From: Candidatus Binatia bacterium
GTDB taxonomy: Bacteria; Desulfobacterota; Binatia; HRBIN30; BPIQ01
Direction: 5' to 3'
Assembly (NCBI GenBank): GCA_026004195.1
Contig: BPIQ01000001.1
Coordinates: 653,871-717,870, forward strand
DNA length: 64,000 nt
The translations under genes were made by a program, and so were the position numbers. How positions within the stretch are numbered: the first letter of the stretch is position 1; each line of letters starts with the position of its first letter. This document shows positions 55,629 to 64,000 of this stretch, in pieces. The notes beneath the pieces were generated by a model. That model had not been told where the DNA came from. It saw only the letters and a program-made list of their open reading frames with translations, and did no database searches.

Positions 55629-56409
55629 GACCATCCGCCGACAGCTCGCCCGACGAGTCCTGCGAACCACCCTCGAGCGTGTCGAGGTTTTCGAGACCCG
55701 GCTGCGGCGCCGGGTTCCGGCGAGGAGGCTCCACGGCCTCGAGGGCCGGATGCTCGCGGCGTTGGAACGGTACGGCAAGTACCTGCTTTTCCACTTCGCC
55801 CCGGACGGCCCGACGCTCTTTTTCCACCTCGGGATGACGGGACGCCTCCTCTGCGACGGCACTCCACCCCCGCACACCCACCTGCGGCTGCGGTTTTCGC
55901 GCTCCGTCGTCCTCTACGCCGACGCGCGCCGATTCGGTATCCTGGGCCTGTCCTCGCGAAGGTTTCCCGAAGAGCTTTCCCGGTTGGGCCCGGACGCCCT
56001 CTCCGAGACTTTCTCCCCCTCCTACCTGGCAGCCCGCTCCCGGGGAAGGAAGCGCGCCATCCACAGCCTGCTTCTCGACCAGCGGGAAGTCGCCGGGATC
56101 GGCAACATCTATGCCTCGGAAATCCTCCACGTAGCGGGTATCCGGCCGTATCGGCCCGCGGGCTCTCTCGAGCCCCGGCACTTCCGACACCTCGTCGGCG
56201 CCACGCGCGCGGTTCTCCGCGAAGCGATCCGGCACCGGGGCACGTCGATTTCCGACTATCGCGACGTGGCCGGCAGGCCGGGCCGCTACCAGCACCGGCT
56301 GCGCGTATACGGGCGCGCCAGCATGCCCTGCCCGGCCTGCGGCGAACCCCTCCGCTCCTCCCGGATCGCCGGTCGCACCTCGTTTTTCTGCGAGCGGTGT
56401 CAGGTTTGA
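55606..56409 (+). CDS. mutM: formamidopyrimidine-DNA glycosylase
   Basis: MPELPEVE N-terminus, H2TH region and a C-terminal CxxC...CxxC zinc finger. Confidence 0.9.
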   Translation: MPELPEVETIRRQLARRVLRTTLERVEVFETRLRRRVPARRLHGLEGRMLAALERYGKYLLFHFAPDGPTLFFHLGMTGRLLCDGTPPPHTHLRLRFSRSVVLYADARRFGILGLSSRRFPEELSRLGPDALSETFSPSYLAARSRGRKRAIHSLLLDQREVAGIGNIYASEILHVAGIRPYRPAGSLEPRHFRHLVGATRAVLREAIRHRGTSISDYRDVAGRPGRYQHRLRVYGRASMPCPACGEPLRSSRIAGRTSFFCERCQV

Positions 56410-57326
56410 GCCATTCGCCACCAGGCTTCGGCCTCGTCCAGGACCCGCTCTTCCGGGAGTCCGTGGCGGCAGAGGACGCGGCAACCGCAGGTTCCGTCAC
56501 GCCGCGCCACGACCGTGCGAAAAAGCGGGGAACGCGGAGACCACGAGGGAAAGGACTCCTCGGGAAAGAGCGCCAGCCCCCGGCACCCGGCGGCGGCCGC
56601 GAGGTGCGTGATCCCCGAGTCGTTTCCGGCATAGAAGCTCGCACGCTCGAGAAGAGCGACGACCCTCGGAAGTTCCTGCCGGAAAAGAACGGCCCCTTCG
56701 GGAAAGTAGAGTCCATCTTCCGCCGGCCCTACCAGCCACACCACCGCGCCGCCTTTCGCTTCCCACCAGCGGGCGAGCGCCGGAAAACCTTCCCAGTTCT
56801 TTCTCTTCGAACCGCTGCCCGGATGGAGTGCCAGAAGAGGTTTGCCACCGAGTTTCTGCCGGTCGAGCCAACCTGCCACCCACCGCCGCTCCTCCTCGCG
56901 GGGCGAAAGGAAAACCGGTTTCGGTTCCACACCGAGACACCGGGCATAGTAGTCGACGGCGTGCTCTCCCGCGGCGAACGCGCGGAACGAGTAGACGCGA
57001 GCCCGGCGGCGCCCTCCGGATTCCGAAAGGCAGCGCAGGAAATCCGCGTCACCCCGACCGCTCCACGAGTGGACTTCGTCCACTCCCTCCAGCAGCTTCC
57101 GGGGCACCCACGGAGGCTCCGGGGAGTAGAGCTCCGCCACCTCGCGCGAGTCGAGATCGTGCGTTTCGATCGCCTCGTCGCGCAACAGGGAGAGCCACTC
57201 CGATCGAGCGACCAGCAGGATCTCGGCGTCCGGCCGCTTCTCTCGGAAGCCGAGGAGGGCCGGCAAGAAACACAGAAAGTCGCCGAGGGCTCCGGGGTAG
57301 AGAAAGAGAACCCGCCTCCCCCGCAC
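56400..57326 (-). CDS. family-9 glycosyltransferase (heptosyltransferase-like)
   Basis: GTG chosen to give MRGRRVLFLYPGALGDFL, a canonical GT9 N-terminus. The ATG 72 bp further upstream would overlap the cysK start codon on the opposite strand. Confidence 0.7.
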   Translation of the reverse strand: MRGRRVLFLYPGALGDFLCFLPALLGFREKRPDAEILLVARSEWLSLLRDEAIETHDLDSREVAELYSPEPPWVPRKLLEGVDEVHSWSGRGDADFLRCLSESGGRRRARVYSFRAFAAGEHAVDYYARCLGVEPKPVFLSPREEERRWVAGWLDRQKLGGKPLLALHPGSGSKRKNWEGFPALARWWEAKGGAVVWLVGPAEDGLYFPEGAVLFRQELPRVVALLERASFYAGNDSGITHLAAAAGCRGLALFPEESFPSWSPRSPLFRTVVARRDGTCGCRVLCRHGLPEERVLDEAEAWWRMAQT

Positions 57327-57396
57327 CGCGTGCGTCCCACGATCCGAAATTGACACCGCAGGAACCCGCCGATAAGGTCTCCCGAGAAAGCTTCCC

Positions 57397-58329
57397 ATGC
57401 GCCCCTCCGTCGTGCAATCTCCCCTCGAGCTCATCGGTGAAACTCCCGTGGTTCGCCTGAACCGCCTCGTCGGGAAGGAGGACGCGGAGGTCTGGGGAAA
57501 GCTCGAGTCCATGAACCCGGGCGGGAGCGTGAAAGACCGCATCTGCCTCAACATGGTCGCGGTGGCCGAAGAGCAGGGACTTCTCCGTCCGGGTGACGTG
57601 ATCATCGAGCCCACGAGCGGAAACACGGGAATCGGGCTCGCCCTCGTGGCCGCGGTCCGGGGGTACCGCCTCGTCCTGACGATGCCGGATACGATGAGCG
57701 AGGAACGCCGCAGCCTGCTGGTCGCCTACGGCGCCGAGCTCGTGCTGACGCCGGACAACAAAGGCATGGGCGCGGCGATCGAGCGGGCCGAAGAGCTGCT
57801 CGAGGAACACCCGAACGCGTTCATGCCGCAGCAGTTCAGTAACCCTGCCAACCCCGACGCCCACAGAAAGACGACGGCGCGGGAACTCCTCGAGCAGTTC
57901 CCGAAAATCGACGCTTTCGTCGCCGGAGTCGGTACCGGCGGCACGATCACGGGCGTAGGGGAGGTGCTCAAGCAGACGTGGAAAGACATCCTGCTCGTGG
58001 CCGTCGAACCGGCAGCCTCCCCCGTACTCTCGGGGGGAGAGCCCGGATTCCATCGGATCCAGGGAATCGGCGCCGGTTTCGTGCCGGAAATTCTCAACAC
58101 GGAAATCTACGACGAAGTCATCACCGTGACGGACGAGGACGCCCTCGAGTACACGCGGCGGCTCGCCCGCGAAGAAGGGCTCCTCCTCGGCATTTCCTCC
58201 GGAGCCAACACGTACGCGGCGCTCCAAGTGGCGCGCCGGCTCGGACCGGGAAAGACCGTCGTCACGGTCTTCTGCGACACCGGCGAACGCTACCTTACGA
58301 CGGAGGTTTTTCGGGGTGAAGGAATCTGA
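57397..58329 (+). CDS. cysK: cysteine synthase A
   Basis: PLP-lysine motif (SVKDRI) and the TSGNTG loop. 310 aa. Confidence 0.9.
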
Positions 58330-59821: not shown

Positions 59822-59862
59822 GAAAAGAAAAGGCCGGGTCGCGGCGGGCAACCCGGCCTTTT
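59822..59862 (-). terminator. rho-independent terminator downstream of carD
   Basis: GGCCGGG..CCCGGCC stem with a 13-nt loop. On the minus strand it is followed by TTTTCTTTTCG immediately after the carD stop. Confidence 0.6.
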
Positions 59863-59881
59863 CGGAGCCCTTCCGCGGAGT

Positions 59882-60364
59882 TCAGTGGGAAAAGATCTGA
59901 TTGAGCTCCGCCATGATCTTTTCTTCCGGGTGCGAGCGGGCGATGGAGAGCTCCTTGACCAGGAGATTCCTGGCCGTGTCGAGCATCTTCCGCTCCCCGA
60001 ACGAGAGTTCCTTGTCCCCTTTCAGGACGCAGAGATCGCGGAGCACCTTCGCGATCTCGAGCACGGAACCGGTCTTGATCTTCTCGGTGTACTCTCTGTA
60101 GCGGCGATTCCAGGTCTGCTGGTCCACCTCGACCTTCTTCTCGCGCAGGATCTTGTACACCTTGGACACCATGTCCTTGCCGATGACCTTCCGCAAGCCG
60201 ACCGCCTGGACGTTCTCGGTGGGAATCATGATCGTCATGTCCGTGTCGAGGATCCTCAGCATGTAGAAGTTCTTCTGGGTACCCGAGACGGAGCGTGTCT
60301 GGATGCCCTCGATCACGCCGACCCCGTGTGCCGGATAGACCACCTTCTCACCTACCTTGAACAT
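59882..60364 (-). CDS. carD: CarD-family transcriptional regulator (RNAP-interacting)
   Basis: MFKVGEKVVYPAHGVGVIEGI..., the CarD/CdnL N-terminal Tudor-like domain. 160 aa. Local GC is lower than the surroundings. Confidence 0.9.
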   Translation of the reverse strand: MFKVGEKVVYPAHGVGVIEGIQTRSVSGTQKNFYMLRILDTDMTIMIPTENVQAVGLRKVIGKDMVSKVYKILREKKVEVDQQTWNRRYREYTEKIKTGSVLEIAKVLRDLCVLKGDKELSFGERKMLDTARNLLVKELSIARSHPEEKIMAELNQIFSH

Positions 60365-60878
60365 GCGGCCAAGCCCCCCTTTCGGTCGAGATGATCAAGC
60401 TCCGCGAATTATACCGGCTCGGTTCTCCTCGAGCAACGAGGATCCGGCACAGCACCAGAGCGTCCCGTCCGGGGCCGTAATAACCCGCTCGGCGTCCGTG
60501 CTCCAAAAAGTTCAAGCTTCGGTAGAGGTTTTTGGCCGGCTCGTTGTCTTCGGCCACTTCCAGGAACACCCGCTCGACCCCCTCTTTCGCCGCGGACTCG
60601 AGGAACTCCCCGAGAAGTCGGCGGGCCACGCCCCGACGACGCCACGGCGGCGAAACGACGAGGTTCAGGATTTCCGCCTCCGGGGGGAGGACCCTCGCGC
60701 AAAGGAAGCCCACGAGGCGTCCCTCCGCTTCGGCGACGAGCCCCGACGCATGCGGGGACTCGAGTTCCCGTTCCAGTGCGGCACGGCTCCAGGCGAGCGC
60801 GCCTGCTTCGCACGAGAGGGCAGCCAGGTCCTCGAGCTGCGAGGGGGAAGGGGCGAGGATCCGGAAGCTGCCGCTCAC
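60348..60878 (-). CDS. rimI: GNAT N-acetyltransferase (RimI-like)
   Basis: Acetyl-CoA binding motif RRRGVARRLL. Its 3' end overlaps the carD start by 17 bp. Confidence 0.7.
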   Translation of the reverse strand: MSGSFRILAPSPSQLEDLAALSCEAGALAWSRAALERELESPHASGLVAEAEGRLVGFLCARVLPPEAEILNLVVSPPWRRRGVARRLLGEFLESAAKEGVERVFLEVAEDNEPAKNLYRSLNFLEHGRRAGYYGPGRDALVLCRILVARGEPSRYNSRSLIISTERGAWPHVQGR

Positions 60879-62308
60879 CGGGCGTCCGCCGCCAAGAGCA
60901 CGACTTCGAGCGTCTTGTCCCGATAACGGTGCTGGAACCCGCGCACCGGACGCTCGAGCTTCACGTAGGTCGTGAAGTCCGGAGGAAACGCGGGTGAGAC
61001 GGCCGCCAGCCGCCGTACCGTGGGATCGACGACCTTTCCCCGGACGACGAAGTAACCGTTCTCGAGGGCGAGGTCGAGCTTGTAGTCGGGCATCTCGTCC
61101 GGAACTCCGAGAGCGAGCTTCTCGGCGGAGGGAGGAATCCGCCGCGGGAGCTCCATGCGAAAGTAGTAGCCGTTCGCGTGCTCTCGCAGGACGTAGACCT
61201 CGCCGTACCGGCGCTCCCGTTCGATCTTGTCCTCGAATTCCGACCCGTGGAACCCGTCGACTCCGACGGCACCCCTCTTTTCCGCAGCGTCCGCGAAGGC
61301 GAGCCGAAACACGGGTGCGAGAAGGGCCCCGAGCACGGCACCGTAGAAGCTCGCGCGGAGGGGAGTCTCCCCGACGGGCCTACCCTGGAAGACCGCTTCG
61401 CGGAGTCTCCAGCAGGTCTCCACCGCGGCCGCGACGAGCCCGAGGAGCACGAGGCCGTGGAGCTGCGAGCTGAACAGGTCCCGCCCGAGGTAAAGTGCGC
61501 CCGCGACGGCGAAAAGAACGGGGTAGAGGACGATGTCGTGGATCACGTTGAGTCCCGTGGCAGCCGCGGCCGAGAAGAAACGGCGGTCGCCGACGGCCCG
61601 CTCGAGGGCTTCTTTCTGCCGTGCGGGCAACGCCCCCAGCACCGGGAGCAAAAGCGCGGCCGCCCAGCGGACAAACCTCCGGCGGGAAGGTCTTCCCGGG
61701 TCCCCCAGAGCCTCGAGCGCTTCTTCGAAGGGTTCGGACAACACCCCCTGCGCGGCTCTGGGCGGAGGAGCGGAAACGAGCTGGAGTTTCGGCTTCGGGG
61801 CCGAGATGGGTTTTTCGATCCGGGCCGGCGCCGGGGAGGCCGCGACAGCGGCCGCAGCCGCGACCCCGGTGGGTTGCGCGGGCGCTGCGGGCTTCGGCGC
61901 CGCAGCGACCTCCCGCTTTTCCTGCGCTGCGCTCGGTGCCGGAGCTTCCGCCGGAGCCGGTCGAGCAGCCCCGTTCCCCTTCTTGAAGCGGGAAGGGAAG
62001 TCCTCGGGAAACTCGACGTCGGGATGAAGCCGCTTGGCCTTGGCGATCAGCTGCTCTTCCGTCTCCGGATGCTCGGGATCCGGAACGCAACAGTCCACCG
62101 GGCAGACCGCGGCACAGGCCTCGTGATCGTAGAACCCGACGCACTCCGTGCACTTGTCGGGAACGATGTAGAAAATGTCCTCGCGCAGCGGTGGGTGCTT
62201 CTGCCCGTCGAGCTCCCATTCGACCCCGCCCGGGTAGATGGCCGTGTTCGGACACTCCGGTTCGCAGGCACCGCAGTTGATACATTCGGACGTGATGACG
62301 GTCGCCAT
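60875..62308 (-). CDS. ferredoxin (7Fe-type two-cluster motif) fused to Ala/Pro-rich linker, transmembrane segment and unknown C-terminal domain
   Basis: N-terminal [12 protein letters not shown] + [18 protein letters not shown] (CxxCxxCxxxCP and CxxCx8CxxxCP). About 90 aa of AP-rich linker, about 4 predicted TM helices, then a soluble roughly 120-aa C-terminal domain. Its stop overlaps the rimI start (ATGA). Confidence 0.75.
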
Positions 62309-62362
62309 GACGGCCCTCCTCGACCCATCTTACGGCCGGGCGAGTTCGGCGCAAGCCACGGC

Positions 62363-64000
62363 TCAGGCAAAGAGCGGTGCCAGGACGAGGGAGACGACCG
62401 ACATGAGCTTGATCAGGATGTTCAGCGAAGGACCCGCCGTATCCTTGAAAGGGTCGCCGACCGTGTCCCCGACCACGGCCGCCTTGTGCGAATCGGAGCC
62501 CTTGCCGCCGAAAGCCCCGCCCTCGATGTACTTCTTCGCGTTGTCCCACGCCCCGCCGGCGTTGGCCATGAAAATGGCGAGAAGGACCCCCGACACCGTG
62601 ACGCCGGCCAGCATTCCCCCGAGCGCGTGCTTGTCCACCGCACCCACGACGACCGGCGTGACCACCGCCAGGAGGCCGGGGAGGACCATGCGGCGAATCG
62701 CCGCCGCCGTGGAAATGTCCACACACCTGGCGTAGTCGGCTCGGGCTTTGCCCTCCATCAGCCCCGGAATCGTCCGGAACTGCCTCCGAACCTCGTCGAT
62801 CATGTCGTAAGCGGCTTCCCCGACCGCACGCATGGCGAGCGCGCTGAAGAGAAAGGGGAGCATCCCGCCCAGGAAGAGCCCCGCGATCACGTAAGGATTG
62901 GTCACGTCGATGGTCTCGATCCTCGCGGAGGCCTGGAAGGCGGAAAAAAGGGCGAGGGCGGTGAGCGCGGCGGACCCGATCGCGAACCCCTTGCCGATGG
63001 CGGCCGTCGTGTTCCCCACGGCGTCGAGCTTGTCGGTGCGGGAGCGAACCTCGGGACCTAGCCCGCTCATTTCCGCGATGCCACCGGCGTTGTCGGCGAT
63101 CGGCCCGTAAGCGTCGACGGCCAGCTGGATCCCGGTCGTCGAGAGCATCCCGAGTGCGGAAATGGCGATCCCGTAGAGGCCGGCGCAGTAGTAGGCGAAG
63201 ACGATCGCCGCCGCGATGAAAAGAACCGGCGGCGCCGTCGAAAGCATTCCGAGACCCAGCCCCGCGATGATGTTCGTCGCGGCCCCGGTCTGCGACTGCT
63301 CGGCGATGCGACGTGCCGGAGAACGCGACTCGGAGGTGAAATATTCCGTCAGGACACCGATGGCGATGCCCGCCGCGAGCCCCGCTACGGTCGCCCAGAA
63401 AATCCCGCCCGCGGAGAGCTCCACCAGAGTGCCGGTGACGTTCGTCTCGGGCCCCACCGGCGCCGGGACGAAAGCACGCACCACGGGATAGGTCGCCGCC
63501 AGCATCAGAACCCCCGCACCGAACGTCCCCAGGTTGAGCGCCGCCTGCGGGTTCCCGCCCTCTCGGGTCCGCACGGCGAACGTACCCACGATCGACGCCA
63601 GCACCCCTACCCCCGCCAGAGCGAGCGGAAGCAGCACGATCCGGATGTCCCCGTAAGCCACCCCCAGGACCATCGTGCCGACGATCGAGCCCACGTAGCT
63701 CTCGAACAGGTCGGCCCCCATCCCCGCCACGTCCCCGACGTTGTCTCCCACGTTGTCCGCGATGACGGCAGGGTTCCGGGGGTCGTCTTCGGGAATCCCG
63801 GCCTCGACCTTGCCCACCAGATCCGCGCCCACGTCGGCCGCTTTCGTGTAGATCCCGCCCCCGACCCGGGCAAAAAGAGCGATCGACGAGGCGCCGAACG
63901 AAAAGCCGGTGAGCACGTTCATCACGCGCCCCGGATCTTCGAAAAGCTGCGAGTAGAGCCAGTAAAGCAGGCTGAGACCCGAAATCCCCAGCCCGACGAC
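62363..64000 (-). CDS. hppA: membrane-bound proton-translocating pyrophosphatase, 5' end beyond window
   Basis: C-terminal ...[34 protein letters not shown] and multiple DxxxD/GG motifs of H+-PPase. The reading frame stays open to the window edge. Confidence 0.85.

Follow-up and report, generated by a model that had tools for sequence, protein, structure and literature searches.

A predicted membrane-anchored fusion of an AlvinFdx/YfhL-type ferredoxin with a divergent α-crystallin-fold domain in the class Binatia

Our analysis of a 64,000-nucleotide (nt) stretch of DNA from Candidatus Binatia bacterium, referred to here as the window, centers on a single gene whose product joins a two-cluster ferredoxin to a hydrophobic block and a C-terminal β-domain. 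The gene encodes a genuine, conserved three-module protein that is predicted to reside in the inner membrane and is typical of the class Binatia. We read this protein, tentatively and with a little less than even confidence, as a membrane-tethered ferredoxin that faces the cytoplasm, with a crystallin-fold domain that would serve as a ferredoxin-partner or oligomerization module. The gene and its parts are given below; residue numbers refer to the fusion protein of 477 amino acids (aa), and all gene features lie on the minus strand.

60875..62308, minus strand: fusion gene, a complete open reading frame (ORF) of 477 aa plus a TGA stop, encoding in order the ferredoxin, an Ala/Pro linker, the hydrophobic block and the β-domain
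62024..62308, minus strand: AlvinFdx/YfhL-type 2[4Fe-4S] ferredoxin, aa 1-95 (NF033683, matches in the Protein Data Bank (PDB), Pfam Fer4_7)
62183..62227, minus strand: 15-aa insertion in the ferredoxin, aa 28-42, modeled as a β-hairpin (gap in the alignment with 1blu)
61751..62023, minus strand: Ala/Pro-rich low-complexity linker, predicted to be disordered, aa 96-186
61697..61750, minus strand: pre-anchor motif EKxFPGELPxSFExAxxxL (family consensus), aa 187-204, including a helix at 194-201
61274..61696, minus strand: conserved hydrophobic block, aa 205-345 (hydropathy; model predicted local distance difference test (pLDDT) 75-95; family charge statistics)
61487..61570, minus strand: first long transmembrane helix, aa 247-274 (hydropathy and model; family mean Kyte-Doolittle hydropathy (KD) 1.42)
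61385..61468, minus strand: second long transmembrane helix, aa 281-308 (hydropathy and model; family mean KD 1.73)
60878..61273, minus strand: divergent α-crystallin (HSP20)-fold β-sandwich, aa 346-477

The initial annotation of this DNA had described the fusion as one ORF, and its exact coordinates hold, with the strand, which it had left unstated, now assigned as minus. According to the ORF listing and translation, the frame opens with ATG and runs for 477 codons, and the sole stop in frame 1 is the terminal one. The G+C content at third codon positions (GC3) is 0.81 in the ferredoxin, 0.75 in the linker, 0.82 in the hydrophobic block and 0.83 in the C-terminal section, and because it is uniform over these four sections we conclude that a single coding frame runs throughout. 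A hidden stop or frameshift, which the initial annotation had named as the circumstance that would split the gene into an ordinary ferredoxin and a separate membrane protein, was looked for in the window ORF and rejected on the open frame, the uniform GC3 and comparative data. The latter come from a scan of GTDB with one genome per species, in which 84 species were found and the best 80 loci were examined for architecture; the same uninterrupted ORF, comprising ferredoxin, transmembrane block and β-domain, is present at 62 of these 80 species loci. A database entry, KatS3mg076_0638 (hypothetical protein, Candidatus Binatia bacterium, 477 aa), is 100% identical to the window protein over the queried aa 184-477.

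The first ~95 residues had been taken for a complete two-cluster ferredoxin, and both Cys motifs are as then described (C9xxC12xxC15xxxC19P and C53xxC56x8C65xxxC69P), their eight Cys ligands being invariant across 96 full-length homologs. The domain scores 92.9 bits against the NCBIfam equivalog NF033683 (YfhL family 4Fe-4S dicluster ferredoxin), above the cutoff of 86, and over aa 3-95 it matches the PDB sequences 1blu from Allochromatium vinosum (E=8.5e-18), 2zvs, the YfhL of E. coli (E=1e-14), 2fgo, the Fdx1 of P. aeruginosa, and 1rgv from Thauera aromatica. The AlvinFdx family is defined by an insertion of 6-8 aa between two cluster II Cys and by a C-terminal piece of ~20-40 aa that is partly α-helical (Elsen et al. 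2010, PMC2984482), and both features are present in the fusion protein: the cluster II motif carries a 6-aa insertion (CxxCx8C in place of the canonical CxxCxxC), and in the alignment with 1blu the C-terminal part is covered by aa 70-95, with a helix at aa 84-94 in the AlphaFold2 model. The N-terminal 95 aa share these traits with 1BLU, 2ZVS, 2FGO and 1RGV, but the known AlvinFdx/YfhL members, a family characterized by two clusters of unequal and very negative reduction potential, occur by themselves at about 80-100 aa, whereas the fusion adds the 15-aa hairpin insertion and a further 380 aa. The published inventory of the family was restricted to proteins of ≤100 aa (PMC2984482), and fusions of the present sort, in which the ferredoxin is only the N-terminal fifth of a 477-aa protein, would therefore have escaped counting.

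In the 15-aa insertion, whose modeled strands cover aa 31-33 and 36-38, V29 and G35 are invariant among the 96 homologs, and conservation is 90% or higher at G28, E30, W31, E32 and H38. Its family consensus, GVEWELNGxxHPAIx, is missing from all solved AlvinFdx structures and is kept in variants that combine the ferredoxin with the β-domain and lack transmembrane segments. The ferredoxin as a whole bears a net charge of about -12 and, since it begins at residue 1 and leaves no space for a Sec or Tat signal, is expected to lie in the cytoplasm. Its sequence lacks nothing that marks a functional very-low-potential 2[4Fe-4S] carrier, and we predict that it acts as one.

The β-domain is the best-conserved part of the protein after the ferredoxin. 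It had been reported as an unknown C-terminal domain, and that description stands insofar as a soluble domain of ~130 aa is real and has no Pfam or NCBIfam model; its fold, on the other hand, can now be assigned as a diverged member of the α-crystallin/HSP20 type. Whether queried with the protein alone or with a profile of its family, the sequence searches of Pfam, NCBIfam and the PDB return nothing past residue 95. The window protein has no match to Pfam HSP20 (PF00011) at E<=0.1, and the family profile has none among PDB sequences at E<=10; the best HSP20 score among the relatives, that of the stand-alone protein P0216, is 15.9 bits, below the cutoff of 20.8. Some database fragments of the family have been automatically named 'Hsp20/alpha crystallin family protein'. 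In an AlphaFold2 model built from the 96 homologs, the β-domain reaches a pLDDT of 84-96 and consists of a helix (aa 356-367) followed by seven strands and two short helices. A Foldseek search of the PDB with this model, as had been proposed for the C-terminal ~130 aa, gives a top 50 made up entirely of small heat shock proteins (sHSPs) or p23/CS domains (probability ~1.0, target template modeling score (TM-score) 0.5-0.67, identity 10-18%). An independent model of the distant member P0341, which pairs a Fer4_13 ferredoxin with the β-domain, agrees more strongly still, with only sHSP, p23 or CS domains at the top, 16 matches at E<=1e-3, and a match to the α-crystallin domain of Sulfolobus Hsp20.1 (4rzk_A; TM-score 0.73, root-mean-square deviation 2.3 Å); over both models, identity to solved sHSPs is 10-20%. 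As supporting evidence only, a single pairwise hhalign run that set an alignment of 27 domain sequences against six canonical sHSPs gives 90.6% probability and a pairwise E of 1.3e-6 over 88 columns. The similarity covers strands β3-β9, including the terminal ...LP..V....(a)..nGvL.v.l.K-like strands.

These models show an α-crystallin fold for the β-domain, predicted to be one that is distinct from the canonical sHSP. The seven-stranded β-sandwich is shared with sHSP/α-crystallin proteins (PF00011), p23 and CS, but the domain differs from them in its own invariant motifs, namely ER.RRYG in helix 356-367, PDEMPDY in an insertion of ~15 aa, and SFP..F; SPAFPPDF is likewise a family motif of aa 346-477. 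It differs further in its β6 dimerization loop region, which is modeled as a helix, in its lack of an I-x-I tail, and in its fusions to ferredoxins and membrane anchors. Family proteins end 2-6 residues past the last strand (...LEVVLLKR), and a C-terminal tail able to carry the I/V-x-I/V oligomerization motif is absent in 24 of 24 aligned members. The Hsp20 family itself is further characterized by ATP-independent holdase activity and large oligomers.

The 84 species of the GTDB scan are nearly all labeled as metagenome-assembled genomes (MAGs) of Binatia, Binatota or 'Deltaproteobacteria', so that the phylogenetic survey that the initial annotation had called for finds the fusion conserved and nearly confined to Binatia. 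Apart from the 62 loci with the complete ORF, the ferredoxin is cut by a contig edge at 2 of the 80 loci, and at 9 the ORF lacks a ferredoxin and runs off a contig edge, which makes them unassessable. Four have the transmembrane block and β-domain with no ferredoxin motif in the β-domain ORF (among them a frameshift case, L042, with the ferredoxin in another frame just upstream), two have ferredoxin and β-domain without the transmembrane block, and one has the β-domain only. Several MAGs titled 'uncultured Enterobacteriaceae bacterium' or 'Candidatus Margulisiibacteriota' (L015, L021, L023, L026, L046, L048 and L003) have the Binatia-type locus and synteny, and their labels are probably wrong. 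On a contig shared with L042, from a long-read MAG, two overlapping frames replace the single ORF, one for a 158-aa ferredoxin and one for a 318-aa protein with the transmembrane block and β-domain (L001:5573-6957); they are set apart by a frameshift inside the low-complexity Ala/Pro linker, which is either a sequencing error of the homopolymer or low-complexity kind or a split that is real and recent.

At the protein level, a search with the C-terminal 294 aa gave 387 clusters among 8,000 candidates scored, and among the best 120, proteins of 455-510 aa with Fer4 domains form the majority; short database matches are mostly truncations, and in one of them, P0054 from a long-read MAG, a frameshift falls within the linker. 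An exhaustive hidden Markov model search of 1.84 billion representative proteins recovered only 194 β-domain clusters at E<=1e-3, so the family is a small one. Its members occur in several further architectures. The β-domain stands alone (~140 aa), follows an FdxA/7Fe-type ferredoxin (~260 aa, one of them named from Bdellovibrionota) or follows an FdxA-type ferredoxin and the transmembrane block; it is also joined to a Fer4_13 single-cluster ferredoxin (~230 aa), to Fer4_13 and a four-cluster polyferredoxin that come before and after it, and to a YfhL-type ferredoxin and linker without the transmembrane block. The FdxA/7Fe-type fusions are P0147, P0193, P0227, P0261 and P0270, the Fer4_13 single-cluster fusions P0231, P0244, P0317 and P0341, and the polyferredoxin fusions P0213, P0235, P0239 and P0260. 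Iron-sulfur (Fe-S) domains from at least four ferredoxin families are found on 26 of the 85 representatives with a complete β-domain. Judged from these sequences, fusion to ferredoxins has been recurrent and evidently independent, yet is not obligatory. The same comparison shows the β-domain to constitute a putative family of its own, undescribed and unannotated and often fused to ferredoxins, whose proteins currently go under the names 'ferredoxin' or 'hypothetical protein'.

Between the two soluble modules lie the linker and the predicted anchor. The Ala/Pro-rich spacer reported earlier is a family-wide trait, 66-119 aa long with 37.5% Ala and 22% Pro, and in the AlphaFold2 model most of aa 112-181 fall below a pLDDT of 50. 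The block around aa 190-200, in the pre-anchor motif that follows, has a mean pLDDT of 97, and the motif is kept in the β-only orthologs P0349, P0419 and P0141, which have neither ferredoxin nor transmembrane segments. As for the 'about four' transmembrane helices first proposed, there are indeed four hydrophobic segments, but only aa 247-274 and 281-308 are clear membrane spans. The outer segments, at ~211-227 and ~321-341, fall short of these in length and hydrophobicity (KD 1.21 and 0.84 on average in the family), and the model has helices there that we read as interfacial, h1 at ~aa 207-224 with a QPLLGALP motif and h4 at aa 323-338. The two long helices are strongly hydrophobic and are joined by a loop fixed at 7 aa across the family, and the loops between outer and inner segments hold about 4 Lys/Arg each; by the positive-inside rule, these properties suggest a hairpin with both ends in the cytoplasm and two interfacial helices, an arrangement that four spans would fit less well. 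In either arrangement, hairpin or four spans, the β-domain would be cytoplasmic. The ferredoxin and β-domain are likely to share a compartment, since variants with ferredoxin and β-domain but no transmembrane block, and soluble variants with polyferredoxin and β-domain, exist. The invariant residues of the block among the 96 homologs are P222, G225, P228, K232, F245, T251, N254, Y262, G290, E297, R301 and Y322, and no His, Cys or Met is invariant among them. A heme- or Fe-S-binding transmembrane block was rejected on this ground, and the lack of conserved cofactor ligands argues that the block is an anchor and not an electron conductor.

The reading that we favor, of a tethered ferredoxin with its partner domain, draws on Rosetta-stone logic: because fusions of the β-domain arose independently with four or more kinds of ferredoxin, it is most likely a ferredoxin partner. 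In the proposed mechanism, the β-domain would cooperate physically with the ferredoxin, whether by docking or holding it or by forming the dimerizing base of an assembly. In the docking version, the invariant Arg-rich ER.RRYG helix would face the acidic ferredoxin, and the conserved 15-aa ferredoxin insertion could be a candidate contact site for the β-domain. The long Ala/Pro linker would allow the very-low-potential ferredoxin to swing like an arm close to the membrane surface, from donors to acceptors in the cytoplasm, and still stay attached to its partner domain throughout. An HSP20-like CS β-sandwich, thought to mediate interdomain contacts, is also part of the electron-transfer protein NCB5OR (cytochrome b5 - CS domain - b5 reductase), which differs in being eukaryotic and soluble, in using heme and flavin rather than Fe-S clusters, and in having no sequence relationship to the fusion protein. 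A bolder proposal, that the β-domain founds a new branch of the α-crystallin superfamily as a dedicated holder, protector or receptor of low-potential Fe-S ferredoxins, is one we regard as possible and on balance doubtful.

The gene lies in the following surroundings in the window.

62363..63925, minus strand: upstream gene hppA for an H+-translocating pyrophosphatase (H+-PPase; Pfam H_PPase, E=3.5e-233)
62315..62319, minus strand: GGAGG ribosome-binding site, 7 nt 5' of the ATG and inside the 54-nt gap after the hppA stop (direct sequence reading)
60348..60878, minus strand: rimI, ribosomal protein S18-alanine N-acetyltransferase (TIGR01575, 90.5 bits, cutoff 86.4)
59882..60364, minus strand: carD, final gene of the apparent transcription unit (Pfam CarD_TRCF_RID and CarD_C)
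59827..59863, minus strand: intrinsic-terminator-like hairpin directly 3' of carD, with a 16-bp stem of which 10 pairs are GC, followed by a T-tract

By direct reading, the TGA of the fusion gene overlaps the GTG start of rimI (GTGA), and the translational coupling to rimI, followed by carD, suggests a constitutive role rather than a pathway-specific one. The terminator-like hairpin at 59827-59863 parts carD from ispD, despite the widely conserved carD-ispD adjacency. Farther along, a 408-aa ORF at window positions 56400-57626 (minus strand) adjoins cysK, and the Binataceae locus L095 has a Glyco_transf_9 (GT9, heptosyltransferase-like) gene in that place; the larE-like/cysK/GT9 neighborhood travels with the fusion-gene locus across Binatia. 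The 64-kb window holds no further ferredoxin motif, and no FabH pair was found elsewhere in it.

The neighbors named in the initial annotation, H+-PPase upstream and rimI and carD downstream, are present on the same strand, but the H+-PPase adjacency is not conserved, being found in only 2 of 81 related loci; a functional link to the H+-PPase as a conserved feature was rejected on this count. Downstream, the 81 loci have a RimI homolog in 42 cases, carD in 22 and ispD in 21. A large clade shows the order fusion gene, degenerate FabH paralog, true FabH, rimI, argS, SPOR protein and trpE/G, the spacing behind the fusion gene being 3-5 nt. The conserved linkage is therefore to rimI, directly or across the FabH pair, with carD-ispD or argS beyond it; these are housekeeping contexts without an obvious redox partner. 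The tandem KAS III pair between the β-domain gene and rimI is found at L082:8385-10330, L084:8386-10342, L086:8406-10351, L090:4682-6626 and L092:3367-5303; its first member, at 203 bits with a FabH cutoff of 292, looks degenerate, whereas the second is a bona fide FabH at 377 bits, and the pair could form a heterodimeric KAS III. In Binataceae, the slot of the fusion gene (followed by rimI, carD, ispD, larE-like, cysK and GT9 as in the window) is occupied by a 212-aa protein with the FPGEL-type motif and the β-domain (P0349, L095). P0324 (L090) and P0141 (L092) are β-only proteins upstream of the FabH pair, with ORFs closed just upstream and no ferredoxin motif upstream in any frame, and P0378 keeps the transmembrane block and β-domain without the ferredoxin. 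The β-domain and the motif that precedes it would therefore be what stays constant at the locus, whereas ferredoxin and anchor have been kept or lost by lineage.

Outside Binatia, the β-domain has as neighbors a lipoprotein and a PatA_N/TPR protein, and the ferredoxin fusion persists. In a Bdellovibrionota-like clade (L088:6774-7280, L094:5566-6066 and L093:5800-6192), the gene for FdxA and the β-domain is always followed, with an overlap or a few nt of spacing, by a gene for a predicted lipoprotein of ~165 aa that has a signal peptide, a lipobox Cys and no Pfam family; in P0270 it appears joined to FdxA and the β-domain as one 432-aa protein. This ~165-aa gene was considered as an equivalent of the transmembrane block and rejected, the predicted lipoprotein being unrelated. 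In a MAG labeled Candidatus Acidoferrales (L086:3297-5476 and L087:1735-3914), the fusion gene has cas2 and a gene for a Cas4-Cas1 fusion a short way upstream, and the ~1.5 kb of uncalled sequence between these cas genes and the fusion gene is possibly a CRISPR array.

Several of these observations weigh against a tethered ferredoxin with a dedicated partner domain. Around 50 of the 85 representatives with a complete β-domain have no Fe-S domain, and same-slot orthologs (P0349/L095, P0324/L090, P0141/L092 and P0378) lack the ferredoxin, the anchor or both; given such ferredoxin-less proteins, the β-domain can evidently function without a fused ferredoxin. No conserved redox enzyme was found near the fusion gene in the contexts examined. 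With regard to topology, segment 319-342 reaches a KD of 1.73 in the window protein, although the family mean is only 0.84, and on hydropathy alone three transmembrane spans are conceivable, in which case the β-domain would be periplasmic. The AlphaFold models are of low confidence for ferredoxin domains without their cofactors, with a predicted TM-score (pTM) of only 0.63-0.64; in the compact Fer4_13 and β-domain relative P0341, which was modeled for docking of the two domains, the ferredoxin has a pLDDT of 53-65 and the pTM is 0.64.

In an alternative that we think unlikely, though it deserves serious consideration, the protein is a redox- or oxygen-sensing membrane chaperone, with an sHSP-like holdase or adaptor as effector at the inner membrane face and the ferredoxin clusters as sensor and not as shuttle; a change in the redox state of the clusters, or their loss, would alter the activity, oligomeric state or location of the effector. 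That the β-domain, and not the ferredoxin, is constant at the orthologous locus is what would be expected if the ferredoxin were a regulatory add-on, and the fold is that of the sHSP, p23 and CS chaperone modules, with the housekeeping or stress-related genes rimI and carD, not redox genes, for neighbors. There is also a precedent for joining a chaperone-type module to a bacterial-type 4Fe-4S ferredoxin in the Chlamydomonas J-domain proteins CDJ3-5, in which cluster loss alters the protein's surroundings (bioRxiv 10.1101/2025.08.22.671721). Cluster state appears to affect the localization of CDJ3-5, which are known from Chlamydomonas and Thaumarchaeota and for which regulation by a sensory Fe-S domain has been proposed; they differ from the fusion protein in having a J domain and another type of ferredoxin, in lacking a membrane anchor and Ala/Pro tether, and in belonging to unrelated lineages. 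However, the hallmarks of an sHSP are missing from the β-domain, which falls below the Pfam HSP20 threshold and has no C-terminal extension for an I/V-x-I/V motif. The ferredoxin, moreover, retains all the features of a low-potential carrier, and the recruitment of four carrier-type ferredoxins points to a carrier partner more readily than to a sensor.

A housekeeping scaffold, in which the β-domain would serve RimI or the two FabH-like proteins as an adaptor, by keeping them at the membrane for instance, and the ferredoxin would be a lineage-specific accessory, appears improbable to us. Across Binatia, the β-domain gene either overlaps rimI or is set only 3-5 nt apart from the FabH-like pair, whether or not it includes the ferredoxin and transmembrane block, and the count of RimI homologs downstream (42 of 81) is in keeping with such a role. 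Synteny among housekeeping genes is nevertheless weak evidence of physical interaction, and outside Binatia the neighbors are the lipoprotein and PatA_N/TPR protein while the ferredoxin fusion is still present. A requirement for ferredoxin is not known for either RimI or FabH.

The initial annotation had itself suggested that the ferredoxin could deliver electrons to a membrane partner. In a specific version of this idea, the partner would be reached via the protein's own transmembrane block or be a neighbor such as the H+-PPase. Such transfer may still occur, and it would agree with the membrane tether and with the position of the gene in the window, where it follows hppA in the same orientation after 54 nt. 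We nonetheless judge it very improbable, as the proposal is weakened by the absence of invariant His, Cys or Met, and hence of cofactor ligands, from the block, by the scarcity of adjacent hppA genes (2 of 81 loci), and by orthologs that drop the ferredoxin, the anchor or both. The H+-PPase is not known to be a redox enzyme. RnfB, a polyferredoxin at the cytoplasmic membrane face, has an N-terminal anchor and no crystallin-fold domain, and belongs to a six-subunit complex encoded by one operon; the anchor of the fusion protein is C-terminal to its ferredoxin, its gene neighbors are hppA, rimI, carD and ispD, and weak NCBIfam similarity to RnfB is seen for relatives only. No rnf genes occur in any gene context examined. 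An artefact, a frameshift or assembly error that joined a ~100-aa ferredoxin to a separate membrane protein, has a negligible chance of being correct: the linker frameshift on the long-read contig L001/L042 does split the gene, but coding statistics in the window are uniform with no stop, and the frame is uninterrupted in 62 independent species genomes and in over 90 protein clusters of diverse origin, assembled with different programs.

In the literature searched, on ferredoxin/α-crystallin fusions, membrane-anchored ferredoxins and Binatia ferredoxins, we found no description of the fusion architecture or of an AlvinFdx anchored in the membrane. Both soluble parts belong to known superfamilies; it is their combination that is undescribed, and the β-domain that is without a curated model. 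The architecture was first called unusual, an assessment that is borne out, as no curated family or paper that we found covers the fusion protein. AlvinFdx/YfhL ferredoxins are widespread and one of them is essential in Pseudomonas aeruginosa, though their partners are unknown outside anaerobic aromatic degradation (PMC2984482). The β-domain, repeatedly joined to the YfhL-type and to three other types of ferredoxin, is a concrete and testable candidate for a ferredoxin-interacting module, and if the bolder proposal of a new α-crystallin branch specialized for ferredoxins is true, the fusion would be a 'Rosetta stone' leading to a long-unknown essential partner or function of the AlvinFdx/YfhL ferredoxins. 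The natural variants with and without the ferredoxin and anchor at one locus offer a ready comparative series for experiments. In summary, these findings would extend the α-crystallin fold to predicted integral-membrane, Fe-S-linked proteins of Binatia, a major uncultured lineage of soils and sediments.

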